Assembly (NCBI GenBank): GCA_047651235.1
Contig: CP178758.1
Coordinates: 3,300,001-3,332,000 of the forward strand
Length of the DNA stretch: 32,000 nucleotides
Direction: 5' to 3'
Origin: Candidatus Electrothrix yaqonensis
GTDB lineage: Bacteria; Desulfobacterota; Desulfobulbia; Desulfobulbales; Desulfobulbaceae
Positions 2,853 to 15,295 of the stretch are shown in pieces. The position numbers were made by a program, and so were the translations under genes. Below the pieces are notes generated by a model. That model did not search any database, was not told the origin of the DNA, and worked only from the letters and a program-made list of their open reading frames with translations. Position 1 is the first letter of the stretch. Every line of letters begins with the position of its first letter.

Positions 2853-3269
2853 TTACTGGGAAAATTTTACGTTGAGTTGACTTGCAACGACTACACTACC
2901 TAGTGGCATATTGGCATTACTGCCATTATGACCTGTGATGGATAAAAGACGGATGCATCTACTCCCTTGGGCCTTAACCTTGGCGCTTCCTTTTTTAAAC
3001 GCTATCTTTCCCATATTCATGCCGGACATAACGCCTTTATTAACTCCGGCTTCATCTCCCATGGAGCGAGAAATATAAGATTTTACAGTGACGGCCTGCT
3101 TACCGGAGAATTTTACCTTTCTAGACGTTTTCTTGGCCTGATTCACCATGCCGCTATTAGGATACGGTGTCGGAACAGGGGGTGCTGGAGGAGCGGGAGT
3201 CAGACAGACATCCGGTGCGCCCAGACAGTTTCCCCCACCTTTTGTAGATGCTGGAAATATTGCTACCAT
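2853..3269 (-). CDS. DUF4150 (PAAR-like) T6SS spike-tip protein, stand-alone 138 aa
   Basis: The motif series matches what I recall for DUF4150: PDVCLTPAPPAPPVPTPYPN, then KVKFSGKQAV, then SRSMGDEAGVNKGVMSG, then a C-terminal GHNGSNAN. It is the last gene of the vgrG1 cassette. Confidence 0.8.
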   Translation of the reverse strand: MVAIFPASTKGGGNCLGAPDVCLTPAPPAPPVPTPYPNSGMVNQAKKTSRKVKFSGKQAVTVKSYISRSMGDEAGVNKGVMSGMNMGKIAFKKGSAKVKAQGSRCIRLLSITGHNGSNANMPLGSVVVASQLNVKFSQ

Positions 3270-3300
3270 GTGAAATAACCCATCAATATTAAAGTTTAAA

Positions 3301-4152
3301 TTACCCCAGGTTAATCTCTTCAGCTTTCACCTTGAAATCTTCTTCGGCTTTTAATACGGTATCCTTGCTCTTAATGTGGCAGGTTGATTTGATCAGCATC
3401 TTCAGCCTGCCGGTTTTAAGCTGAGAGAGGTTTTCAACTGACTGATACATATCCTGTGCTTTATGGATAAGTGTTTTTGCCTTTGTTTCAATCTTGCTTA
3501 TATTGAGCGTTGCCTGCACCAGATTCGTCAGTACTTTTTTTCCTGTTATTTTCAACTGATCTATAAATAAATTTCCATTCTTTGCTGTCACGTGCAAATT
3601 GGGACAGTTCAGCTTAGTTTGGTAATTTCCCAACGACAGTGTTGAGAGAGAACCTTTGCTATAATCCTGCACCTTCATATTGATCTTATCTTTTCCTGTA
3701 AAATCAATTGAATTGCTTTGGAAGGTTATAGATTCCGGAGAATTAAATTCCATATTGCCGGTAAGAGAACTCACTGTAGTTGTATCTTTTCCTGTATCAT
3801 ATTCAATAATAAGTTTATTATGTGGAGAGAAAATCTGCAGGGATGTCCTGTCATTATCAAGGCGAGCATAGGCACCGTTATCTGCGCGTATTGTTGCGAA
3901 CGCTTTTGCTGACAATACTCCAATGATATAGATACTGCGTATATCCTCACCGGCAATAAGCACCTTATCCCCACAGCTCAAATCAATATCATAAGGCAGG
4001 GCCAGAGCGGCATCTATCGCCTGTATCTCCGGCAGGGTGTCAATATGTATTTTTGCGGTTCTTTTTTCCCGGTCAAAAGAAACTATTTCTGCTTCCTGGG
4101 CAGAGAAACGCTTTGTGTAGTCTACAGGATAAAGTGAAGCAATTTTTGTCAT
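3301..4152 (-). CDS. DUF3540-like protein of the vgrG/DUF2169/pentapeptide cassette (family call is largely context-based)
   Basis: The ORF-track start at 4257 would overlap the upstream gene by 91 nt. The ATG at 4152 follows GGGAGA and lies 14 nt after the upstream stop. The 283-aa protein is beta-rich with a C-terminal helical tail. It sits in the slot DUF3540 occupies in cassettes I know of: vgrG, DUF2169, pentapeptide, DUF3540, DUF4150. Confidence 0.55.
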   Translation of the reverse strand: MTKIASLYPVDYTKRFSAQEAEIVSFDREKRTAKIHIDTLPEIQAIDAALALPYDIDLSCGDKVLIAGEDIRSIYIIGVLSAKAFATIRADNGAYARLDNDRTSLQIFSPHNKLIIEYDTGKDTTTVSSLTGNMEFNSPESITFQSNSIDFTGKDKINMKVQDYSKGSLSTLSLGNYQTKLNCPNLHVTAKNGNLFIDQLKITGKKVLTNLVQATLNISKIETKAKTLIHKAQDMYQSVENLSQLKTGRLKMLIKSTCHIKSKDTVLKAEEDFKVKAEEINLG

Positions 4153-4166
4153 ATCTAATCTCCCGC

Positions 4167-5999
4167 TTAGATTGAAGAACGAGGCGGCTTCCAGTTTTCC
4201 GCAGCAGCAAGGTCTTTGTCTGTTGTCTCCACAAGCACTCTGGATGCTCCTTTCCAATCAGTACCGACCTCCCTGGTGCGGTGCATAACCGATTGAAGAA
4301 GATTTGCCCCTGCCATATCACAATTCTGCAGGTTTGCGTGGGACAAATCGCTATACAGCATCCGGGTCTGCGAAAAATTTGAGCCACGGCAATCCGCATA
4401 ATTAAATTCAGCCCGCTCCAGATTTGCACCGGAAAAATCGGTTTTTCGCGCATTGGTATGGAGAAAACAGGAGCAAGGTAAAGTTGCCCCTTTAAAATCT
4501 GCGGCATCAAGAACAGCTTCCGTAAAATCAGCTGTATCGCAGAATGCACCCTGCAGGGTGCTGTTTCGTAAATCAGCTTTAAAGAAATCTGCCTGGTTGA
4601 GAACTGCCCGATTTAATATAGTATTCTGCATCTTGGCCGAGGTGAAGTCAGCATCCGTGAAATCACATCCGGTAAGGTCCATGCCGCTGAAGTTACACTC
4701 TGCCAACTTGCACAGGACAAATTTCGTCTGCTTTATTTTTGTTTGGGTAAAATCAACTCCCGGAAGATCAGTGCGCTCAAGTGAGGCATGGGTCAAATCA
4801 ACCTGCTCCATATTACACTGCTTCATATCACAATACTGCAGGCTTGCTTCAGTAAAATTTGCACCAACCAGCTCACTTTTTGCAAGATCTGTGTTATCCA
4901 GCAAGGCCTTGCTGAAATCAACTCCTTTCAGATTTGCTCCGGAAAAATCAGCGTCCGTCAAATTACATCGGCAAAACTTTGCTCCCTGAAGTTCAGTATC
5001 AGAAAAATTTGCGTCACAGAGGGCCTGACCGCTGAAATCCAGCTGCGGCATAAATGATTTGTGAAATGAAACTTCAATAAATTGAGCGTCTTTTATTTTG
5101 GCGTTCTTAAAATTGGAATTATTGAAAGTACATTCGGAAAACTGCATTTCGGAAAGATTCTGCCCGTACAAGTCACAGTCCTCAAAAACACAACCTGTCA
5201 GTTGAGCAGGAAACGACTCCTTAAACGAGGTGAAAATAGTATGGTGAAATTCGGTTTGTTCAAGGACGGCTGTTCTGCAATCAACATCTGTAAAATTCAC
5301 TTCCTTAAATGTTGTCTCATGCAGATTAACTTCTGAAAAAACAGCATTACTTAAATTGGTTGTTTCAAATAACGTGTTATCAAGGAGACCCTTTGTAAAC
5401 GTAGCTGCCGACAGCGAACAGTCCTCAAATCGAGCCCGTTCAAGGATTGATTCCTGAAAGAGCACTTCATCCAGTTCTGCTTCCATGAACATGGCCCCTT
5501 TGAGATTTGCCTGACTGAAATCCGTACTGCAGAGCCGCATTTTTCCCTTGGAAAAACCGACGATCCCTTGTTCTCTCAGGACGTTCTGCGTATCTTCATC
5601 AAGCTCAAAGGTATCAAACTCAAAGAGAACTTTTTCCTGATCCTTTTCCGGAACATTATCGACAAGGAAAAGAGCATCTGCAAGATCTGCACGGGTAAAA
5701 TTGGCCTGACAGCAATCTGCATTGACAAAGATTGTTCCGGCAAGTTTCGCCTCGGTGAAATCAACGCCGGACATAATGCAGTTATTGAAAACAACATTAT
5801 TCAACGTTGCCCCGCGCAGGTCTGTATTTGTCAAATGAACCGCATTAAAAGTGACAGTGTCAAACGTTGCGCCCTGTAAATCAAGACCGCTTAAATCAAT
5901 TTCATTCAGCAGGGTATTTTCTATTGCCGAACCGGCCCGAACCGCCTCAACGACATCATCAGAGGTCAGGAACCCCTTCATGTCTTCAATAGTAGCCAT
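4167..5999 (-). CDS. Pentapeptide-repeat protein (610 aa)
   Basis: Almost the whole length is A(D/N)LxX-type pentapeptide repeats, e.g. LSGLDLQGATFDTVTFNAVHLTNTDLRGATLNNVVFNNCIMSGVDFTEAKLAG. One non-repeat insert occurs near residues 115-160. The start overlaps the upstream stop by 14 nt. Confidence 0.9.
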   Translation of the reverse strand: MATIEDMKGFLTSDDVVEAVRAGSAIENTLLNEIDLSGLDLQGATFDTVTFNAVHLTNTDLRGATLNNVVFNNCIMSGVDFTEAKLAGTIFVNADCCQANFTRADLADALFLVDNVPEKDQEKVLFEFDTFELDEDTQNVLREQGIVGFSKGKMRLCSTDFSQANLKGAMFMEAELDEVLFQESILERARFEDCSLSAATFTKGLLDNTLFETTNLSNAVFSEVNLHETTFKEVNFTDVDCRTAVLEQTEFHHTIFTSFKESFPAQLTGCVFEDCDLYGQNLSEMQFSECTFNNSNFKNAKIKDAQFIEVSFHKSFMPQLDFSGQALCDANFSDTELQGAKFCRCNLTDADFSGANLKGVDFSKALLDNTDLAKSELVGANFTEASLQYCDMKQCNMEQVDLTHASLERTDLPGVDFTQTKIKQTKFVLCKLAECNFSGMDLTGCDFTDADFTSAKMQNTILNRAVLNQADFFKADLRNSTLQGAFCDTADFTEAVLDAADFKGATLPCSCFLHTNARKTDFSGANLERAEFNYADCRGSNFSQTRMLYSDLSHANLQNCDMAGANLLQSVMHRTREVGTDWKGASRVLVETTDKDLAAAENWKPPRSSI

Positions 6000-8010
6000 T
6001 TGTAAGTTTGGTCATTTTTAAATTTGCAGATTTAAAGATGGTTCCCTCTAGCTGACTTCCCAGAAATTCCGTCCCGTAAAGATTGGAGCCGGTAAAGTCA
6101 GTCTGCATTAAATTGGCATTTTCAAAACTGGATTCAAACAGATTCATGCTGATACAACGTGCTGCCTGCAGATTTGCTTTGGCGAATTTGGCTTGTTTCA
6201 TGTCTGCGGCGAGAAAGTTCACCCCTTTAAGTATTGCAGAAGAAAAATCAGCCGCCGCCATATCTGAGCAAGAAAAATCAGCTCCGGTTAATTCCGCCTC
6301 TTCCCATGTGGAATCATTACCGATCACCCGCGTAAAATTTCCTTCAGGAAAACAACACTTCTTCGAAGCACGCAATTCGGTGAGATCGCACTCTCTCATG
6401 CTGAGTTGTTCTCCTTGGGCAGCATCCAAAGTTGCTTCTTTAAGGCTTGCCTTATGGAAATCCGCCTTATGCAGGAGCGTATTTGAAAAGTCAGCGCCAT
6501 CCAATATTGCGTTTTTCAGGCTGGCTCCCGACAAATCTGCTTCAGAGAAGTATCCGTCCACAGCCTGTGCATTATCCAGGACAGCCTCCGTCATTCTTGC
6601 TTGTTCAAAAATCGTATCTTGAAGGACAGCCTCACTCAAATCAGCACCGTTCAGACATGCTGAAGTAAAGTCTGCTTCACAGGCATCTACCTTTTTTAAT
6701 GAGGCCCCGGTCAAGTCAGCTTGGGCAAAATTCGCTTCAGTTAGGATAGCTTCATCAAGGAGGGCATTTCTGAGGTTCACCTTGGAAAAAACAGCCTCCC
6801 TGAAGTCCCCGCCGCGAAGATCCAAATCAGAGAGGTCAAGACCGGAAAAATCTTCTTCAGCAAAGAATTCATTATTGGCCAGTCGTTCGAGAATTTTTTC
6901 ACGGGTCAGGGCTTCTTCTTCAGTGACTTTATCAAGTCCGTATTTGGCCAGAATGCGGGCCTCCATTTCTTTGTCTTCCTGACTCGGCTCCGGGATATCC
7001 TGTACAGGTTCAAGACCTGCTTCTTTCAACTCTTTCTCTAATTCTTCCTGGGCTTTTTTAACTTCCAGTTCCGCCTTCTGTATTTCTTCTTCAATGGAAA
7101 TGGTCGGTTCTTCTTCTACGCTTTCTGTTTCCGGGAATTCCTCTTCAAAAGGAGCGTCTTCCGCAGCAAGGGCAGCCCAAAAATCTTTTCGGCAATCTTC
7201 TATTGAACGGGGAGATTCATCCAGCTGTTCAGATACAATAAAAAGCCCTGTAACCTCCTCGTAGTCTTCCGACCGCACTTCGGTGACCCCGCGCCAGACA
7301 AGAACGAGTTTTTCCGCCTCCATATCAACCCAGAGGGTATCCAGATTCATTTTTACTTCAGCAAACTCGGTTTCATCTTGGTCTGTTGAAGCAAGCCTAT
7401 CCGTAAAGCACCGGACCCGCAAGCCGGGCAGTTGCGTTTGATAGACCGGGATTTCAGGATGCAGGTTTGTGCAAATAATCGGTTCGTCACCTCTGAGATA
7501 GCCGCTGACCTGCATGTTTTTCGGGGCAGCGTTATAATACTCCCAGCTGAAATCAAGCGGGAACCAAGGCCAGCGTTCTTTCAGCCAGTTGTTCTCATAG
7601 GTTCCAAGTTTGGAAGAACGTTGCGGCCCCATTTTATTCAGAGGGCCGAAGCCTGCCGGTTCACCGTCAGCGGAAAGCTGATGTGTTGTCCGTTTAGTGC
7701 CGACCTGAAAGGTTGCGGTACGGGTTGCCAGAGGAGTCCCTTGTGGCGGATGGCATTTGCCGATAAGCAGTAAATCCGCTTTGGGTTTGTAATAGGCAAA
7801 GTCGGATTCGTAGCGGACGTTCTGCTGTTGTTCATCATCCGGGTAGAACTCATCGCCGGTGGGGTAGAGTTGTTCTTCTGAAATAGTGGCTGTCTCCCCG
7901 TGTTTCAGGTCAAAAGTGCCTTTGATGATCAGGGTAAGTGTATGACCCGGAAAACTCATCCTGCCCACGAACGGGGCGATGGTGAATCCGGTTTTATTTA
8001 AAAATTCCAC
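5986..8010 (-). CDS. DUF2169 domain protein fused to an acidic coiled-coil linker and a C-terminal pentapeptide-repeat domain
   Basis: The N-terminus (NKTGFTIAPFVGRMSFPGHTLTLIIKGTFDL...LYPTGDEFYPDDEQ...YESDFAYYKPKADLLLIGKCHPP) matches the DUF2169 pattern I recall. A Glu-rich helical linker follows (EEEIQKAELEVKKAQEELEKELKEAG). About 290 aa of pentapeptide repeats complete the protein. The start is a GTG 15 nt after the vgrG1 stop. Confidence 0.8.
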   Translation of the reverse strand: MEFLNKTGFTIAPFVGRMSFPGHTLTLIIKGTFDLKHGETATISEEQLYPTGDEFYPDDEQQQNVRYESDFAYYKPKADLLLIGKCHPPQGTPLATRTATFQVGTKRTTHQLSADGEPAGFGPLNKMGPQRSSKLGTYENNWLKERWPWFPLDFSWEYYNAAPKNMQVSGYLRGDEPIICTNLHPEIPVYQTQLPGLRVRCFTDRLASTDQDETEFAEVKMNLDTLWVDMEAEKLVLVWRGVTEVRSEDYEEVTGLFIVSEQLDESPRSIEDCRKDFWAALAAEDAPFEEEFPETESVEEEPTISIEEEIQKAELEVKKAQEELEKELKEAGLEPVQDIPEPSQEDKEMEARILAKYGLDKVTEEEALTREKILERLANNEFFAEEDFSGLDLSDLDLRGGDFREAVFSKVNLRNALLDEAILTEANFAQADLTGASLKKVDACEADFTSACLNGADLSEAVLQDTIFEQARMTEAVLDNAQAVDGYFSEADLSGASLKNAILDGADFSNTLLHKADFHKASLKEATLDAAQGEQLSMRECDLTELRASKKCCFPEGNFTRVIGNDSTWEEAELTGADFSCSDMAAADFSSAILKGVNFLAADMKQAKFAKANLQAARCISMNLFESSFENANLMQTDFTGSNLYGTEFLGSQLEGTIFKSANLKMTKLTNGYY

Positions 8011-8025
8011 TTCTATTCAGGACGG

Positions 8026-10275
8026 TTAGTCTCTTGACGAGTTTTTATCCTTAGCGGTACCTTTTACTTCTAAATCTTTTTTTGCCAGTACCTTTTTGTT
8101 AGCAATTAAGTTTCCATCTATCACTACGTCAGGAGCTTGCAAGACAATTTTGGTGTCGGCTTTAATGGTAATAATTGTCCCTCCCTTCAAGTCAAGAGTA
8201 GTAAATGTCTCTAATTCGTAATTCCCTATTTCTTCTTTTTTCTCCCCTAAATATTTTGAAAGTTTTTCAGAACCTATCTTTATCTCCTTAACTTTAGTAC
8301 GTGTGTGTTTTATCCCGGCAGTTACTTCACTGGTGGCAGCAAGATTTTGGGTTGCTTTCAGTCCGACAAAAAGTTCTTGTGTAGCAGCAAGTTGCTGAGT
8401 CGATTTTGCTGCCACACAAACTTCATGACTAGCTCCAACTTTCATTTCACTTTTGGGCCCGTCAACCTTGCACCACGAATTACCTTTTACTGATTTTTTT
8501 TCTGCACCAATAACCGTCACAGTCCTGTCAGCGTTAACACGAAGTTCCTGATTGCGTACAACCGTGTCCTGATCACCAGTAACCTTTATCCCTTGATTAC
8601 CCCCTACAACTTGCTCATCATCGCCGGTAATCTCCAATTTGCTATCACCGCCAATATTAGTTGTATTATTAGCACCGATTTTTGACACCCAAGTACCATC
8701 GGATCTTAAGAATATATTCCCCTCATTCACATCACCTAAAGATATAATAGAATTGCTCGTCGGCGAAGACATATGAATCTGCTGCCCCCCTTCACCATCC
8801 TCAATCCGAATCTGATTTCCGCCTCCGGTCCGTATCACACTCTGCGTCTGATTACCTGAAGTTACAGGAGTTTTCGTCTCCGGGTTCGGCACGGCCCCCG
8901 CAATAATCGGTCGGTCAGGATCACCGTCGATAAAGGTCAACAGCACCTCGCCTCCCTTATGCTGAGGAAAATGCATGCCGTAATCCGCACCGCTATAAGG
9001 CTGCATCATCCGGCACCAGGCCGAAGCCTTGCCGCTGCCGCGCCCGCTGCGGTCAAAAGGCAGAATAACCTTGTACCGTCCTTGATCATCCAGTTCGGCA
9101 TATTTGCCGCTGGTGGCCGCATCTATCTTCGCATTGATGGTTCCGGATATCTTCGGCTTCACCGCAGTCCGTTCCGGCCTGAATTGGGCATCTGAATAAA
9201 TAGCCGTAAAGGTGTTGGCATAAAACATCTGCTCATCCCTGGGTTGCAGCGCTGCCGTTACCCCGGAAATGAGAAAGCCGGTCTGATGCCCTTCATGATT
9301 GACATCAGTGATCAGGTATTTTCGGTTGTATAGCTTCTGGTAATGCTCCTGGAGGTCAAAGGTAAAGCCGGGCACGATAAACGGCACCGAACTTTTGCCG
9401 AAGAAGAGAGATTTGCGACAGAGCAGCTCTTCTGCCCGAATTCCGGCCAACCGGTTTCCCTCTTCCGGGGTGGGAAAATGTTCGCCGTAGATATAGTTTT
9501 CCCCCCGACCGTCCGGATCAACCTCTGCTGAACCTTCCATGGCCAACGATGGTTTACGGTAATTATAGTCCTTCAGAAAAACCCTCTGCGGCAACAGACT
9601 GTGTTTGCAGAGGAATTCTTTGATAACCTCTTTGGTGTGCAGAGAATCCAGACCGGACTGAGGCGAGTAAATCAGATCCTTGCCAAGGACAAGGTCGGTC
9701 TGGGAAATGTTGGTGTCCGTGAAAACAACTTTTTCCCCCTGTTTGGTCTGCTCAAAGAAATAATAAATCCCTTCCCGTTCCGCCCACCTGGCGACAAAGT
9801 TCAGATGGGATTCACCATACTGGCAGATATACTCAAACGGCTGATAGTCATTCTGCAGCCTGAACTCAAAATCTATTCCGCTGACCAGATCACCGTCTTT
9901 CAGAGCTGCCTCCATAATTTCCGGGGCTGTCTGATCAAGAAAAACCTGATTATGATGGGTCAGGGAAAGCCACTGGAGCTTGGGCGCCAAAACGGCCTTG
10001 AAAAAAAGATACCCGTTGAACTCCTGGGTCTCTTCAAACTGGATCAGAATGCCGTTGAAGATCACGTCCTGTTCATTGTCCCGATGAATGGTGAACACCG
10101 CAGGATTTTGCAGCACCTGCAAAGGGTCAATATTCTTTTTTTCCGAGACCAAGACGATCTCAAACTGGTAGGGTATGGAGACTGCCTCAAAGCCCTTGAA
10201 ACTGACCACGGCAAAGCTGTCTTTATCTGTTGCTTTGGAGGTAAAAGAGAATTTCTTTTTGGTTAACAGGGCCAT
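8026..10275 (-). CDS. vgrG: T6SS spike protein VgrG (TssI), canonical length (749 aa)
   Basis: The gp27-like N-terminus reads FSFTSKATDKDSFAVVSFKGFEAVSIPYQFEIVLVS...LSLTHHNQVFLDQTAPEIMEAALKD. The gp5 OB-fold core reads GTINAKIDAATSGKYAELDDQGRYKVILPFDRSG...ASAWCRMMQPYSGADYGMHFPQHKGGEVLLTFIDGDPDRPIIAGAVPNPE. A beta-helical C-terminus follows. A strong SD is present (AGGAGGAAAACCAAATG). Confidence 0.92.
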   Translation of the reverse strand: MALLTKKKFSFTSKATDKDSFAVVSFKGFEAVSIPYQFEIVLVSEKKNIDPLQVLQNPAVFTIHRDNEQDVIFNGILIQFEETQEFNGYLFFKAVLAPKLQWLSLTHHNQVFLDQTAPEIMEAALKDGDLVSGIDFEFRLQNDYQPFEYICQYGESHLNFVARWAEREGIYYFFEQTKQGEKVVFTDTNISQTDLVLGKDLIYSPQSGLDSLHTKEVIKEFLCKHSLLPQRVFLKDYNYRKPSLAMEGSAEVDPDGRGENYIYGEHFPTPEEGNRLAGIRAEELLCRKSLFFGKSSVPFIVPGFTFDLQEHYQKLYNRKYLITDVNHEGHQTGFLISGVTAALQPRDEQMFYANTFTAIYSDAQFRPERTAVKPKISGTINAKIDAATSGKYAELDDQGRYKVILPFDRSGRGSGKASAWCRMMQPYSGADYGMHFPQHKGGEVLLTFIDGDPDRPIIAGAVPNPETKTPVTSGNQTQSVIRTGGGNQIRIEDGEGGQQIHMSSPTSNSIISLGDVNEGNIFLRSDGTWVSKIGANNTTNIGGDSKLEITGDDEQVVGGNQGIKVTGDQDTVVRNQELRVNADRTVTVIGAEKKSVKGNSWCKVDGPKSEMKVGASHEVCVAAKSTQQLAATQELFVGLKATQNLAATSEVTAGIKHTRTKVKEIKIGSEKLSKYLGEKKEEIGNYELETFTTLDLKGGTIITIKADTKIVLQAPDVVIDGNLIANKKVLAKKDLEVKGTAKDKNSSRD

Positions 10276-10512
10276 TTGGTTTTCCTCCTTTTGGATTCCG
10301 ACAAATTCGCCTTCAGGTCAGTGCGGCGGCACCGGTGGTCATTTTTTCAGAGAGCTTCCCGCCCACCTCTGCAAATGACAACCACTTAATAGACCGAGAT
10401 AGCACATCCTCCTACCTTGTGTCAATATGTAATTATTTTGTACGAGCTGTTGAACAGTCTTCTTCCCCGGCAAATTCGGTCTCCGGTCCATCTTCATAGC
10501 CTTCCTTTGATA

Positions 10513-11280
10513 TCAGACCGAAACCACATGCATTTCTACCTCATCACCCTCGGCAGCAGGCCCGAACAGAAAACCGGACGGTACGCCGTCCACTTTGACA
10601 AAATAGGAGGACTCCCTGTCCAGTCTGTTGGCAACGGCCCAGCCCGTGTATTCGGTCTCGCCGAGACGGAGCTGCATCCCCTGGATGGGATATTCAAGTA
10701 TGCATTTCTGCGGCAGAGTCCCGGCGGGGCCGACACCGTGTGCTACGATATTTCCGCCGGTTACGGCAAACATCGCCCCAGGCCACTCCTGCTCCCCGAC
10801 CGGGCCGACCTCAAACCAGGTACCGAATCCCGGATTGGCATGAACGCCTAAGCGGTACTCGGCTGATAAAGGCTTTGCCGCTGTGTTTGCCCCGGCTGCC
10901 AGTTTGGCCCCGAGCAGGCTGCTCTTCGAGCCGATCAGGGGCACATCGGCAAAAACACCAGGCAGCGCGTCCGGACTGAACTGATTATCGGTATCAACCC
11001 AGAGAATGGAGAGGTCCGGCCGTTCGGCTCGAATGCTCAGGCAGAGCAGGGTGAGGCCGTACCGGGTCTCCGGGAGCAGATCTTCTGCGCCGCCTGCAAT
11101 GACCCAGAGGGCAATGGCCTTATTCCGGAGTGTGTCCCGTACAGCTGTCCAGGCCATATTTTTCAGGTCGTCGGTCCAGAAATGGCCGTCAGCATTCAGG
11201 CCGTACTGCGCGGCGATACCGGTTATTGTGGCAGCAGATACCTGCTCTTTGGCCAAAGCTGTCATCCATATATTTTTCAT
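10513..11280 (-). CDS. Hypothetical protein (255 aa), translationally coupled to vgrG2; no family recognised
   Basis: The ATG lies 9 nt after the vgrG2 stop, and the SD AGGAGAG overlaps that stop. Amino-acid composition is ordinary, with no signal peptide or TM segment. The N-terminal ~125 aa alternate hydrophobic strands and amphipathic helices, suggesting an alpha/beta fold. The C-terminal ~120 aa are Gly/Val-rich and beta-like. Confidence 0.7.
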   Translation of the reverse strand: MKNIWMTALAKEQVSAATITGIAAQYGLNADGHFWTDDLKNMAWTAVRDTLRNKAIALWVIAGGAEDLLPETRYGLTLLCLSIRAERPDLSILWVDTDNQFSPDALPGVFADVPLIGSKSSLLGAKLAAGANTAAKPLSAEYRLGVHANPGFGTWFEVGPVGEQEWPGAMFAVTGGNIVAHGVGPAGTLPQKCILEYPIQGMQLRLGETEYTGWAVANRLDRESSYFVKVDGVPSGFLFGPAAEGDEVEMHVVSV

Positions 11281-11289
11281 TGTTCTCTC

Positions 11290-14061
11290 CTAACCAAGAA
11301 TGATTTTTGAGCCGCTGTCCACCTGCAGATTTCCTTCCTCAGCCCCCTGGATCTGAATCTGTCCGGAGAGCTTGATTTCGCCGTTGCTGATGGTGATCTG
11401 CGCATCACCGGACTGGATGGTTACAGTTCCCTGCTTCAGTTCAACAGCCGCCAGAGCGCCGCCCGAACCTTCTTCGCTGCTGTCCGTTTCCGTGGTCTGC
11501 GTCTCGCCGCCAGAGGTATCTGTGGTTTCCTCACCGCCCCCTCCCCCACCGGAGAGCAGGCGGATATAATTATCAGCCCCTTCGCCGCTGAGCATCTCAA
11601 TGTTGCCCTGGGAAAGCTGGGCAGTGGCCATAATGCTGCCCGCATCTCCCTTTTCGCCGGAGATCAGCCAAATGGAGCGGGGCACGCCATCTTCCCCGGC
11701 CCCGTTGCCGCTCCGCATGACAAGATCGCCCTGCAGCAGCTCCAGCATGGCCTGGGCATCGCTCTCGTCTCCCTTAAAGCCGGAAACCAGTTTGATAAAG
11801 TTCTTGCCGTCTTCAACCGGGGGTTCGTTGCCGGAAGGCTCTATCGCTCCGGCTTCTCCCCCTTCCTCTTCGGCCTCCTCAGGCTCTGCTGCCTCTTCCT
11901 CTGTCTCGTCACCTTCCTCCTCTTCTTCCTCCTGCGGCTTGCTGCCTAGGTTGCCGCTGGTGATGGTGATATTGCCTTGGGCAAGCTCCATCAAGGCCCT
12001 GGTATCGGTTTCCTCATTACTCAGGCCTGAACCGAGCAGAATATGATTTTCCTCTTCTGTCCCGCTTTCCAGCTCGATGTTGATGCCTTCCGCATAGATA
12101 TCTCCGGGTTCGGTCTTGAGATAAATATGCTTGCCTGCGGCCTTGTTGCGGACCAGGGTTTCCCCTTCTTTGGAGTAGACCAGATAGGCGGATTCACCGG
12201 CTTTGCCCTCAGCCCCCATTTCCTTGACTGTCAGGGCGATGAAATAGAGTTCCACCAGAATTTCTACGACCGAGGAAACCGCCGTGACCAGATCCACCTC
12301 GTTCTGAATAACATTCGGATCCGCATCAGTATAGGCCCGATCATAATTTTCCATGATCTTGGGTGCCCGGAGCATAAATTTCTGCAGGACCTTCATGATC
12401 AGGCCGAATTTCCAGCCGGTGATGGAGGTATCCTGAATAGCGGCAAAAGTATAATTGGCCATCAGGCTGCCGATCACCGACATGGCGGTGCCGCCCATGA
12501 ACAGGTTGGAGGACCAGGCCGCCACAGAGGAATCCGACCCCGCGCCGATGCGCAGGCCGGAATGATCATCCCCGGCCTTGAACATAATATGCTGATGTCC
12601 GGGCCGGTCATCACTGTAAAAACTGCTGCCCCCGGCGGTCTGAAATCCGGAGCGGTCCTGGTTGCCTGCCTCGACCACACTGCGGGTCTCCGGATTGGGC
12701 ACGGCACCGGTGATGATCGGCCGGTCCGGATTGCCGTCAACAAAGGTGAGCAGCACCTCGCTGCCCTTGCGCAAAGGAAAATGCATACCGTAGTTCGGCC
12801 CGGTAAACGGCTGCATCATCCGCAGCCAGGCCGAGGCTTTGCCGCCTGCACGAGTGGAAATATCAAAGGGCAGGACAACCTTGTACCGTCCCTGCTCATC
12901 CAGCTCGGCATATTCCCCGGAACCCTGCGCATCAACACGGGCATTGATGGTGCCGGAAAAACTGGGCCTCGGCGTTGTCCGCTTGGGACGGAACTGAACA
13001 TCCGACGGAATGGCTGTAAAACTGTTGCTGTACCAGCTTTCTCCGCTCAGTTCAGGGTCCTGGGAATCCTCGCCCTGGCGGCCATGATGTTCGATATCGA
13101 CACAGAGATAATGCCGGTTGAGATCCTGGCGGAAATGGCTGCTCAATGAAAACAGGAAACCGGGCTGCATCCCCACAGCTGTGCTCTCTCCCTGAAAGAG
13201 CTGTTCCTGCCAGCGCTGCTCTTCCGCCCGGATCGCGGCCAGCCGCTGCCCCTGTTCATGCGACTGAAAATGGTCGCCGTAATGATAGACATTCCCGAAG
13301 CCGTTTTCCGAGATTTGTGCCTCGCCCGACATTTCCAGACTCGGTTTGCGGTAGTTGTAATCGCGCAGCCGGACTGAACCCGGCACCAGAGAATGGACCT
13401 TGTTGAACTTTTGAACAGATTTTGTTTTTGAAATGCCGTCCAGACCGGTATCCGGAACGTAAATAAACTGACCGCCGTTTTTCGGTGCCTCATGGCTGAC
13501 GAGGGTATCGGTGACTACCAGACGGTCACGACCGGAACCATGCTCAAAAAAGGTGTAGATCCCGTTCTGCTCCATGCGGCGGGCCATAAAATTATAATGG
13601 CTTTCCCGATACTGGCAGACATACTCACGCGGTTCATATTCGCTCTGGAGCCGAAAATCAAAATCTGCCGGGGTCAGGTCGCCGTCCCGAAGAACCGTAT
13701 CGATAATCTGGGGAATGGTGCGGTTGAGAAAAACCTGGTTATGCTCAATCAGGGTCAGCCGCCAGCAGAGAGGAACCAGCCGCGCCTGATAGAGAAAGCG
13801 TTTGCCCACAGGATGCTCCAGGGTGCAGCGGGAAAGAATGCCGTGATACTGCAGGTCACCGGCCTCTTTGCCCCGGATGGTCAGGGTGGCGCCATGACGC
13901 AGGAGTTCGGCCAGATCAATATCCGGGCTTTCCGCCAGCAGGGCAATATCAAAGCGGAACAGGGAAGAAAGCGCCTCGACACCGTCAAAGCGGACAACCG
14001 TAAAGGTCTCCGCGTCCAGGGCATCGCTCTGAAAGGTGAAAAGTTGTTTCGGCTTGGCCAT
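11290..14061 (-). CDS. vgrG: Extended ('evolved') VgrG, 923 aa, with an unassigned ~460-aa C-terminal region
   Basis: Residues 1-460 are collinear with VgrG1, e.g. GTINARVDAQGSGEYAELDEQGRYKVVLPFD...ASAWLRMMQPFTGPNYGMHFPLRKGSEVLLTFVDGNPDRPIITGAVPNPE. The remainder consists of a hydrophobic block, a poly-acidic tract, four 31-aa repeats and a beta-strand-like tail. Confidence 0.9.
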   Translation of the reverse strand: MAKPKQLFTFQSDALDAETFTVVRFDGVEALSSLFRFDIALLAESPDIDLAELLRHGATLTIRGKEAGDLQYHGILSRCTLEHPVGKRFLYQARLVPLCWRLTLIEHNQVFLNRTIPQIIDTVLRDGDLTPADFDFRLQSEYEPREYVCQYRESHYNFMARRMEQNGIYTFFEHGSGRDRLVVTDTLVSHEAPKNGGQFIYVPDTGLDGISKTKSVQKFNKVHSLVPGSVRLRDYNYRKPSLEMSGEAQISENGFGNVYHYGDHFQSHEQGQRLAAIRAEEQRWQEQLFQGESTAVGMQPGFLFSLSSHFRQDLNRHYLCVDIEHHGRQGEDSQDPELSGESWYSNSFTAIPSDVQFRPKRTTPRPSFSGTINARVDAQGSGEYAELDEQGRYKVVLPFDISTRAGGKASAWLRMMQPFTGPNYGMHFPLRKGSEVLLTFVDGNPDRPIITGAVPNPETRSVVEAGNQDRSGFQTAGGSSFYSDDRPGHQHIMFKAGDDHSGLRIGAGSDSSVAAWSSNLFMGGTAMSVIGSLMANYTFAAIQDTSITGWKFGLIMKVLQKFMLRAPKIMENYDRAYTDADPNVIQNEVDLVTAVSSVVEILVELYFIALTVKEMGAEGKAGESAYLVYSKEGETLVRNKAAGKHIYLKTEPGDIYAEGINIELESGTEEENHILLGSGLSNEETDTRALMELAQGNITITSGNLGSKPQEEEEEEGDETEEEAAEPEEAEEEGGEAGAIEPSGNEPPVEDGKNFIKLVSGFKGDESDAQAMLELLQGDLVMRSGNGAGEDGVPRSIWLISGEKGDAGSIMATAQLSQGNIEMLSGEGADNYIRLLSGGGGGGEETTDTSGGETQTTETDSSEEGSGGALAAVELKQGTVTIQSGDAQITISNGEIKLSGQIQIQGAEEGNLQVDSGSKIILG
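11407..12045 (-). repeat. Four protein-level repeats inside the VgrG2 C-terminal region
   Basis: The units are listed below; pairwise identity counted by hand is 13-14 of 31 positions.
- nt 11953-12045: HILLGSGLSNEETDTRALMELAQGNITITSG
- nt 11707-11799: FIKLVSGFKGDESDAQAMLELLQGDLVMRSG
- nt 11584-11676: SIWLISGEKGDAGSIMATAQLSQGNIEMLSG
- nt 11407-11568: YIRLLSG-[G/E/T/S-rich loop]-ALAAVELKQGTVTIQSG. Confidence 0.75.
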
Positions 14062-14629: not shown

Positions 14630-15295
14630 ATGGAAAATAGAATAAACGAATCATTAGATACATCGTTAACTCGTTCAGTAGCAACTCAGTCACTCGCTGA
14701 TGTTTTGAGTGCCGTCTCTGAAATTACAATAGATACCACCTTGGAGTCCGGTGTCTTACGTGACATACCAGTAATAGGGATGGTAATCGGAGTTCTGAAG
14801 GCTGGTAGCGATATTAAAGCAACTTTATTTTTGCGAAAAGTAGCGATTTTCTTGAAAACCTTATCCGAAATATCAGATGAGAAACGTAAAGAATTCGTTG
14901 ATAACATGAAAACTCCAGAGCAAAAACATAAATTCGGTGAGGCTATCCTTTTACTGCTCGAACGGGCTGAGGATATGACAAAGCCGAAACTAATTGCGAA
15001 AATAATTAATGCTTATATTTTAGAGCATATTGAGGAGGCAACTGCGTTTAGAATTTGCTCAATGATAGATCGTTGCTATGTCCAAGATCTTGAGCTGTTA
15101 AAAAACTTTAGTGATGGTACACAAGGTGACGATACACCTATAGCTGAGACTTTGCTATCAGTTGGATTTTTGTCTAATGGCGGTATTGATGGCGGTTCTT
15201 GGGGCGAAGAGGAGGATGAGGACAGCGGCGGTGTTATTTATAATATGAACGAATATGGAAAAATGTTTGTTAACTATGCGTTGAGTAACGACTAA
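14630..15295 (+). CDS. Hypothetical protein (221 aa), AT-rich orphan gene; family not recognised
   Basis: The ATG follows GGAG and lies 12 nt after the panD remnant stop. The protein is predicted helical with an acidic Gly-rich C-terminus (GGIDGGSWGEEEDEDSGG). The DNA is visibly more AT-rich than the downstream gene: hand counts give 19/60 and 23/60 G+C in lines 15001 and 14641, against 34/60 in line 15421. Confidence 0.75.
   Translation: MENRINESLDTSLTRSVATQSLADVLSAVSEITIDTTLESGVLRDIPVIGMVIGVLKAGSDIKATLFLRKVAIFLKTLSEISDEKRKEFVDNMKTPEQKHKFGEAILLLLERAEDMTKPKLIAKIINAYILEHIEEATAFRICSMIDRCYVQDLELLKNFSDGTQGDDTPIAETLLSVGFLSNGGIDGGSWGEEEDEDSGGVIYNMNEYGKMFVNYALSND

Follow-up and report, generated by a model that had tools for sequence, protein, structure and literature searches.

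Gene T and the vgrG in front of it

A 32,000-nucleotide (nt) stretch of the genome of Candidatus Electrothrix yaqonensis (assembly GCA_047651235.1, contig CP178758.1, positions 3,300,001 to 3,332,000 of the forward strand; hereafter the window) contains a gene, here called T, that directly follows an extended vgrG gene of a type VI secretion system (T6SS). The original prediction, made from the nucleotide sequence alone, had listed T as candidate cargo, adaptor or immunity gene and its pairing with vgrG as the best candidate for an undescribed T6SS cargo or accessory module. Our analysis of T and its relatives revealed a soluble, acidic, two-domain protein that is encoded in T6SS clusters bearing a Class III Tvp spike module, i.e., genes for VgrG, a DUF2169-pentapeptide repeat (PPR) protein, a PPR protein, a DUF3540 protein and a DUF4150/PAAR-like protein. 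T, the vgrG and the junction between them are as follows; window positions are used throughout.

10513..11280, minus strand: T, an ATG open reading frame (ORF) for an acidic (pI 4.8), cytoplasmic protein of 255 amino acids (aa); unnamed T6SS-associated family with homologues and a structural model with a predicted local distance difference test score (pLDDT) of 92.6
11281..11295, minus strand: junction of vgrG stop and T start; TAG stop, 9-nt spacer, AGGAG Shine-Dalgarno sequence overlapping the TAG
11290..14061, minus strand: vgrG923 (923 aa); Phage_GPD (1e-77), Phage_base_V and TIGR03361 (2.5e-108)

Read directly, the junction is ATT CTT GGT TAG-GAGAGAACA-ATG, and the predicted 9-nt distance between the vgrG stop and T, with the Shine-Dalgarno sequence overlapping the stop, is indeed found. 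In E. aestuarii and further Electrothrix relatives, vgrG and T are similarly close to each other (about 12 nt). The prediction that T has no signal peptide or transmembrane (TM) segment agrees with its hydropathy profile, in which no such segment was detectable and the maximum 19-residue Kyte-Doolittle mean was 1.09. Since homologues of constant length and 40 to 90% identity occur in 156 protein clusters and at 179 species-level genome loci, T is a real gene.

Distribution of the T family

The 156 clusters, all of about 250 to 265 aa, came from a word-indexed search. The closest ones belong to Candidatus Electrothrix (70 to 90% identity), and the remaining ones, with 40 to 50% identity, belong to Syntrophales, Desulfobacterales and other "Deltaproteobacteria." When 1.84 billion representatives were searched exhaustively with a profile, 243 matches were obtained at an E value of ≤1e-3; family members are 250 to 270 aa long, and nearly all full-length members among these representatives have both domains. 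Furthermore, a scan of 185,579 species genomes yielded 179 relatives, of which the best 80 are nearly all from Thermodesulfobacteriota, with a few bins labeled Latescibacterota, Acidobacteriota or "archaeon." No relatives of T were found in the viral contigs searched. T is a small, unnamed family that is almost confined to Thermodesulfobacteriota.

Genomic context of T across relatives

T6SS genes around T were identified by tblastn with the T6SS proteins of the window and of locus L004 (L numbers label loci of relatives), and T was scored as T6SS linked if such a gene lay within 10 kb. All context counts refer to the best 80 of the 179 species-level loci. T6SS genes were present within this distance in 71 of the 80, in several orders and despite heavy shuffling of gene order, and homologues of T are thus clearly not found mostly outside T6SS contexts. 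In most of the other nine loci, T lies near a contig edge or next to a block of genes for a protein that we call X, a TssBC-like protein and a kinase. This X/kinase block is present in L045, L060, L070, L076, L083 and L093, which at first seemed to be devoid of T6SS genes. Only L003 and L060 have no recognizable core, Tvp or spike T6SS gene in their 10-kb flanks, and L060 keeps X directly downstream of T. These two loci, and a UniRef label ("DUF4430 domain") on one family member, would fit the idea that T is a passenger gene that has no role in secretion and came to lie in the islands by chance, but the linkage in 71 of 80 loci across several orders, despite the shuffling, and the lack of any Pfam match, DUF4430 included, make this idea hardly credible.

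The immediate upstream neighbor of T is a PAAR-like gene in 27 loci, clpV in 15, a diverged tssC-like gene in 10, tvpC in 5 and tvpA in 1. Downstream, mostly non-T6SS genes, vgrG or TssBC-like genes were found: vgrG is the immediate neighbor in 12 loci and a tssC-like gene on the opposite strand in 10. Three orders recur: (i) clpV-vgrG-tvpAB-tvpB-tvpC-PAAR-T, as in L016 from Desulfogranum mediterraneum DSM 13871; (ii) tssBC-hcp-tssEFG-clpV-T-vgrG-tvpAB-tvpB-tvpC-PAAR; and (iii) ...PAAR-(x)-tssC-like-T. In L086, where the order is clpV-T-(tssC-like, opposite strand)-tssJ-tssK-tssL-tssM-AMIN-vgrG, every core gene is present, and T is an extra gene within the core cluster. The Class III Tvp module is present in the large majority of T loci. 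Eight loci (L021, L026, L038, L039, L044, L050, L080 and L082) have a single T despite two complete Tvp modules.

An unbiased, all-against-all clustering of the neighboring ORFs recovered a tssC-like gene in 26 loci, X in 14, a TPR-containing Ser/Thr kinase in 10 and an FHA protein in 6. No gene accompanied T in most loci of this clustering, and no conserved immunity-like partner emerged. The PAAR-like proteins near T are short (131 to 138 aa) and have no effector domain.

Divergence of T compared with core and spike genes

Over the same locus pairs, the median pairwise identity was 46% for T, 46% for TssF, 42% for TssG, 42% for TssE, 44% for PAAR and 32% for TvpC. Co-divergence was expressed as the Spearman correlation (rho) of pairwise identities, a measure that has no correction for phylogeny and in which the subset of loci differs from gene to gene. 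It was calculated in two versions, one based on BLAST and one on global alignment over whole loci.

T and TssF: 0.92 (BLAST based), 0.84 (global)
T and TssG: 0.86 (BLAST based), 0.83 (global)
T and ClpV: 0.87 (BLAST based), 0.59 (global)
T and TssBC-like: 0.85 (BLAST based)
T and X: 0.86 (BLAST based)
T and VgrG: 0.41 (BLAST based), 0.31 (global)
T and TvpA: 0.32 (global)
T and TvpC: 0.23 (BLAST based), 0.29 (global)
T and PAAR: 0.11 (BLAST based), 0.09 (global)

The reference values from global alignment were 0.84 for TssF-TssG and 0.72 for TvpC-TvpA. By this rough proxy, therefore, T keeps pace with the core machine no less closely than core genes do with each other, and it does not follow the exchangeable spike modules.

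Sequence searches, structural model and conserved residues

Neither T alone nor a profile of 42 family members gave a match in Pfam, NCBIfam or PDB sequences, and none of the 42 members matched any Pfam family at an E value of ≤0.1; the earlier statement that T contains no known adaptor, toxin or immunity motif agrees with these empty searches. DUF4123 (PF13503) gave no match at an E value of ≤1 for T or any of the 42 members, and the Pfam model of DUF1795 matched neither T nor the 42 members. DUF2169 (PF09937) has no match in T; a genuine DUF2169+PPR gene is located separately at 5986..8010. There was also no Pfam or NCBIfam match to TagF, TagJ/ImpE, Fha/TagH or TssA-like proteins, and none of these was among the top 50 Foldseek matches in the PDB. 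A UniRef label, "DUF4430 domain," on one family member was not reproduced, as Pfam gave no DUF4430.

An AlphaFold2 model calculated with the family alignment as input (pLDDT, 92.6; predicted template modeling score, 0.90) has two domains, and both the alpha/beta N-terminal half and the beta C-terminal half that had been predicted are seen in it.

10876..11280, minus strand: N domain of T, residues 1 to ~135; five-stranded alpha/beta, flavodoxin/TIR/CheY-like, with the conserved loop motif DGHFWxDDLxxMAW (DSSP on the model)
10516..10875, minus strand: C domain of T, residues ~136 to 255; nine-stranded beta-sandwich with the motifs GxWxEVGP, HGVGPxGxLP, LEYP and SYF

The N domain is a three-layer (beta/alpha)5 structure that Foldseek places in the flavodoxin-like fold class. 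Its best matches in the PDB were SPARTA TIR-APAZ chains (E value, 1e-4), and the TIR domain of Brucella TcpB gave a target-normalized TM score of 0.58. Similar scores were obtained with PurE, type II dehydroquinase and succinyl-CoA synthetase and, in BFVD, with receiver domains. When the TIR fold was considered specifically, TIR-APAZ and TcpB came out on top, CheY-like, PurE and other flavodoxin-like folds were comparable, and there was no Pfam TIR match. The C domain was also modeled separately (pLDDT, 91.2). Alone, it retrieved nothing from the PDB at an E value of <1e-3; the best Foldseek matches were generic sandwiches (carbohydrate-binding modules, immunoglobulin and mu-homology domains) with TM scores of ≤0.47. 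A two-domain match of T to SPARTA TIR-APAZ was therefore rejected: because the isolated C domain does not retrieve APAZ, the apparent two-domain likeness is carried by the TIR part. As judged from the models, the Foldseek matches of T (full model against the PDB and BFVD; C domain against the PDB) are resemblances of fold class only.

In the alignment of the 42 members, 21 positions are invariant, and Trp and Gly are frequent among them: K2, W5, Y26, G32, F34, W35, W44 and W59 in the N domain and G153, W155, E157, G159, W166, G168, G184, P190, Y197, W214, N218, S225 and Y226 in the C domain. A catalytic Glu of the TIR type is not conserved at residues 60 to 90 of this alignment, and the sole invariant Glu, E157, is in the C domain. 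The Asp pocket of CheY-like receivers is absent as well: the ends of beta1 and beta3 are W5 and W59/I-A-G, not Asp, and there is no Response_reg match. Because both the conserved catalytic Glu and the receiver Asp pocket are lacking, we read the N domain as a presumably noncatalytic docking module.

These data bear on the possibility that T is a secreted effector, either a TIR-like enzyme that is degenerate or atypical or a toxin that binds glycans, that is delivered by the spike and needs no dedicated immunity protein (for example, because it is directed against eukaryotes). TIR domains are the best structural matches of the N domain, carbohydrate-binding modules are the top, if weak, matches of the C domain, polar residues (H33, D37, R143, E157, H181, N218 and S225) are conserved, and T adjoins spike genes. 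However, the TIR catalytic position has no conserved Glu, Pfam TIR is matched by none of the 42 members, and no delivery marker of the MIX, FIX, PAAR or Rhs type is present. Moreover, the uniform length, the 40 to 50% identity across orders and the core-like co-divergence are unlike polymorphic effectors; T also lies within core operons, between clpV and vgrG or tssJ, and has no conserved adjoining immunity gene, with X in only 14 of 80 loci. An effector function is, therefore, quite improbable.

A single domain fusion was seen, in one metagenome-assembled genome (MAG), where P0124 (L094:2662-4938, plus strand) joins an FHA-TM-SLT lytic transglycosylase to T. Since the ATG of T and an AAGGAGG just upstream of it are retained, a stop codon has probably been lost or missed, and P0124 was not used for localizing T.

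Association of T with the extended VgrG in cable bacteria

The C-terminal part of the VgrG encoded directly before T was analyzed by hydropathy and repeats.

11293..12561, minus strand: C-terminal extension of vgrG923 (aa 500 to 923); hydrophobic helical insert, polyacidic tract and four beta-repeats

The helical insert covers approximately aa 510 to 610 and the poly-Glu/Asp tract aa 705 to 735; the four repeats of about 40 aa have the pattern I.L.SG...L.L.QG.I...SG, with acidic or Gly-rich loops between them. The extension has no relative in Pfam or the PDB, and a toxin/immunity reading of the pair, which we considered on this basis, is therefore without footing there. Among L001 to L093, the extension was found only in L001/L002 (E. 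aestuarii) and in L014, a Desulfobulbaceae MAG (65% identity), and these belong to the few loci in which vgrG directly precedes T, an arrangement seen only in Electrothrix and Desulfobulbaceae. Four further Electrothrix contexts end with ...PAAR-tvpC2-vgrG(896-937 aa)-T. In L097, T is followed by vgrG746-tvpAB-tvpB-tvpC-PAAR, exactly the order of the window, and this locus also carries a genuine, separate DUF4123 gene. In composition, vgrG923 and T are alike (GC content, 0.57 and 0.59; GC content at third codon positions [GC3], 0.66 and 0.65), whereas vgrG749, tvpAB and tvpB, described below, have a GC content of 0.47 and a GC3 of 0.43 to 0.50.

In cable bacteria, vgrG923-T is a genuine unit that is inherited together and probably cotranslated. 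The pairing is, at the same time, a lineage-specific placement of a gene that has other neighbors elsewhere. The original prediction that T is tied to its adjoining VgrG thus applies to Electrothrix and Desulfobulbaceae, where the unit is tight and compositionally uniform, but not to the other loci, where the neighbors are PAAR-like genes, clpV or the sheath paralogue. Likewise, co-occurrence of T with the C-terminal region of this VgrG, which had been proposed as a check, was found in Electrothrix (L001/L002 among L001 to L093) and in L014 and in no other locus of that set.

T could be a spike-specific adaptor or chaperone that binds the adjoining VgrG, or the complex of VgrG, Tvp proteins and PAAR, and stabilizes it or loads it with cargo; in cable bacteria, binding would be via the hydrophobic extension of vgrG923. 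The translational coupling of T to vgrG923, the GC3 common to the two genes and the conservation of extension and T in Electrothrix and Desulfobulbaceae (65% and 62 to 90% identity) argue for this, as do the position of T at the flank of a spike module in at least 44 of 80 loci, a phospholipase-like and an ankyrin gene after T in L095 and the acidic, soluble nature that T shares with known chaperones. However, in the species-level survey an extended VgrG directly precedes T only in L014 (plus the Electrothrix relatives), eight loci have a single T for two spike modules, and in seven loci tssJKLM lies between T and any vgrG or T is beside clpV only. Co-divergence is weak with VgrG, PAAR and TvpC and strong with TssF, TssG and ClpV. 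Furthermore, T has no similarity to DUF4123, DUF1795 or DUF2169. We therefore consider an adaptor or chaperone function, the strongest of the alternatives, rather unlikely as the role of the family; in cable bacteria only, T may have a VgrG-specific adaptor role.

T could also be an immunity protein against a toxic activity of the extended VgrG. A positional parallel exists in Serratia marcescens Db10, where Vai1 (SMDB11_2245) and SMDB11_2246 are encoded directly after vgrG1 of a Class III Tvp system, between the extended VgrG and tvpAB, as T is in the window. Vai1 is a TM-anchored, periplasmic immunity protein of the DUF3192 type, whereas T is cytoplasmic, unrelated to it and widely conserved, which makes the immunity reading less likely. 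In addition, most T homologues adjoin no vgrG, the extension is absent outside Desulfobulbaceae, and the conservation of T is core-like. Taken together, the chance that T is an immunity protein is minimal.

The spike island in the window

Downstream of T, on the same strand, the window contains a second vgrG and a whole TvpAB-TvpB-TvpC-PAAR-like module, which had not been described in the original prediction.

10276..10512, minus strand: 237-nt intergenic gap between T and vgrG749, with a TTGACA hexamer and a strong Shine-Dalgarno sequence (AAAGGAGG) before vgrG749
8026..10275, minus strand: second vgrG, vgrG749 (749 aa), at the head of the Class III Tvp spike module; Phage_GPD (9e-68) and Gp5_trimer_C; GC3, 0.50
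5986..8010, minus strand: TvpAB/TagAB-type protein (674 aa); DUF2169 (4.7e-56) and Pentapeptide (3.7e-46)
4167..5999, minus strand: TvpB/TagB-type PPR protein (610 aa); Pentapeptide (3.3e-90)
3301..4152, minus strand: TvpC/TagC-type DUF3540 protein (3.5e-20); the likely start is an internal ATG at 4152, and the listed ORF starts with a TTG at 4257
2853..3269, minus strand: PAAR-like spike tip of the DUF4150/Tox-PAAR-like type (138 aa); 46% identical to the Tox-PAAR-like protein of L004

All five constituents that define a Class III Tvp module are thus present at 2853..10275 on the minus strand. Because of the TTGACA hexamer and the strong Shine-Dalgarno sequence in the 237-nt gap, vgrG749 is probably the start of a separate transcription unit; a consensus scan of the gap revealed no terminator. 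The break in base composition at 10276 to 10512 suggests that two units of different origin have been joined at the gap. The window contains no core T6SS gene (tssB, C, E, F, G, clpV or hcp) and no Rfam family. In other Electrothrix genomes, vgrG-T closes the main clpV-tvp cluster and PAAR-tvpC2 stands before the pair; PAAR-tvpC2 is missing here. The locus in the window resembles a spike island that has been rearranged or orphaned. Its PAAR-like end is bordered by two plus-strand genes (21 to 2551), one for a 274-aa response regulator and one for a hybrid histidine kinase of 569 aa. Upstream of vgrG923, a divergent gene for an unrelated 221-aa protein without a Pfam match is present at 14630 to 15295.

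Genes that recur beside T

Of the 80 loci, 26 have, next to T and besides the normal tssB and tssC, a gene for a diverged sheath paralogue (TssBC-like; 450 to 570 aa); it is absent from the window. Examples are L054:10800-12371 (minus strand), L041:13506-15125 (minus strand), L009:8321-9928 (plus strand) and L086:10773-12137 (minus strand). Of three members analyzed with Pfam, those of L054 and L041 have, in a single chain, a TssB/VipA-like N terminus and the N domain of TssC/VipB, without VipB_2, and that of L046 has VipB only. The paralogue is 23% identical to true TssC, and no description of a fused TssB-TssC-like sheath paralogue was found in a literature search. X, a helical protein of about 255 aa with no Pfam match, is encoded directly 3' of T in 14 of 80 loci (for example, L060:10862-11620, L072:10838-11602 and L094:5028-5795, all on the plus strand) and is often followed, on the opposite strand, by genes for the sheath paralogue, an FHA protein and a TPR-containing Ser/Thr kinase. 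Together, X, the sheath paralogue, the FHA protein and the kinase look like a T6SS regulatory block.

Other neighbors of T are less widespread. In L006 (1-5472, plus strand), as well as in L007, L008 and L019, an unusually long, evolved VgrG of at least 1904 aa heads the Tvp module, and T follows the PAAR-like gene. Several loci of Syntrophaceae have genes of the SBP_bac_3/ligand-gated-channel-like (iGluR-type) kind as recurrent neighbors of T and the sheath paralogue (L009:7500-8309 and 10797-13149; L068:7083-8249; L096:11849-12781). In the Electrothrix relative L095, an AAA_15/AAA_21 ATPase gene and a DUF4276 gene, presumably a defense-type pair, are inserted in the spike module, between the PAAR-like gene and tvpC2 (4614-6379, plus strand).

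Proposed function of T

With moderate probability, T serves the T6SS of Thermodesulfobacteriota as a Tag-type factor in assembly or regulation that is specific to this lineage and not secreted. One copy per cluster, core-like conservation and co-divergence and a uniform architecture argue for a fixed accessory part and not for polymorphic cargo or an immunity protein, and so do the site inside core operons, the cytoplasmic character, the lack of conserved catalytic residues in the TIR-like domain and the lack of a conserved immunity-like partner. Of the labels that T had carried at the outset, the accessory role is retained; cargo, immunity and a general VgrG-specific adaptor role are less compatible with a single-copy gene that diverges like a core gene and has no conserved immunity-like neighbor.

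As an assembly or regulatory factor, T would be passed on along with the genes for the baseplate, the sheath and ClpV, with one copy per machine. The TIR/flavodoxin-like N domain may serve in protein-protein docking or oligomerization and the beta-sandwich C domain in partner binding, and the two domains together might act as a scaffold or checkpoint in assembly, between the spike/baseplate and the sheath/ClpV sides. Candidate partners are the TssBC-like sheath paralogue, X and the FHA and Ser/Thr kinase regulators. Since ClpV, the sheath paralogue, X, the FHA protein and the kinase recur as neighbors, we infer that T may work on the sheath, baseplate or posttranslational-control side. In cable bacteria and other Desulfobulbaceae, T would have been moved to the cluster end, behind a long vgrG, and the translational coupling would secure co-expression there without reflecting the function of the family.

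Several findings weigh against this assignment. In over half of the loci, T borders the spike module, either preceding vgrG or following the PAAR-like gene, and such a position would suit a spike-loading factor as well. In the window and four Electrothrix relatives, T is tightly coupled to one extended VgrG. In L095, the phospholipase-like gene and the ankyrin gene after T give the classic layout of vgrG, adaptor, effector and immunity gene, a synteny that was found in this locus only and is not conserved across T loci. L003 and L060 lack recognizable core, Tvp or spike T6SS genes in their flanks, and the correlations on which co-divergence is based are uncorrected for phylogeny and come from different subsets of loci.

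More speculatively, T, the TssBC-like paralogue, X, the FHA protein and the PpkA-like kinase might constitute an as yet unrecognized T6SS submodule of Thermodesulfobacteriota that controls the initiation or termination of the sheath, with the TIR-like domain of T as a ligand- or oligomerization-driven switch that permits firing as soon as a Class III Tvp spike has been loaded; we would give this scheme only a small chance of being right.

T6SS biology is known almost only from Pseudomonadota and Bacteroidota, and lineage-specific accessory genes are common in T6SS loci. The T family adds a conserved, unnamed T6SS component of sulfate reducers, syntrophs and cable bacteria. It is accompanied by a second oddity, the fused TssB-TssC-like paralogue, and both are additions to the Class III Tvp spike system, itself defined only recently. 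Should T prove necessary for assembly, it would represent a new accessory class and provide a handle on the contact-dependent weapons of environmentally important anaerobes; if it is a spike adaptor, it would have a new adaptor fold. Either way, the family merits a Pfam/InterPro entry, and T cautions against the default label "cargo" for a gene that follows vgrG.

Comparison with known systems

The Class III Tvp module VgrG1-TvpAB-TvpB-TvpC-Paar1 was defined in Serratia and is equivalent to TagAB/TagB/TagC/TagD of Burkholderia (Monlezun, Earl & Coulthurst 2026, 10.64898/2026.02.23.707444). The clusters that contain T have the same set of genes, with a long VgrG, DUF2169+PPR, PPR, DUF3540 and DUF4150/PAAR-like proteins, and T, being small, soluble and conserved along with the machine, resembles accessory factors. 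However, T is not a Tvp component, shares no domain with these proteins, is absent from the Serratia and Burkholderia systems and does not co-diverge with the Tvp genes. SMDB11_2246, which stands with vai1 behind vgrG1 in Serratia marcescens, shows no phenotype, and no relation of it to T was detectable, as the T profile search found no such relative.

Like Tap-1/TEC (DUF4123) and Eag (DUF1795) proteins, T is a soluble, acidic product of a gene right after vgrG, and in L095 it is accompanied by a putative lipase gene and an ankyrin gene. Unlike them, T has no similarity in sequence or fold to either family, most of its homologues are encoded away from vgrG, and it is present in one copy whatever the number of spikes. 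With the TIR domains of SPARTA TIR-APAZ and Brucella TcpB, with CheY and with PurE, the N domain of T, as modeled, appears to share the overall fold and the order of strands; it differs from TIR and receiver domains in that Pfam TIR is not matched, the catalytic position has no conserved Glu and the Asp pocket of receivers is missing, and the likeness is one of fold class only.

A 2026 review of T6SS-associated genes (TAG; PMC13584744) still describes the T6SS-i as confined to Pseudomonadota, and its TAG table has no entry resembling T. Literature searches on the T6SS of cable bacteria and of Desulfobacterota, on TIR-type T6SS effectors and on fused TssBC paralogues returned nothing relevant to T. 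The T family is new, but the category to which it belongs, that of T6SS accessory genes, is known.

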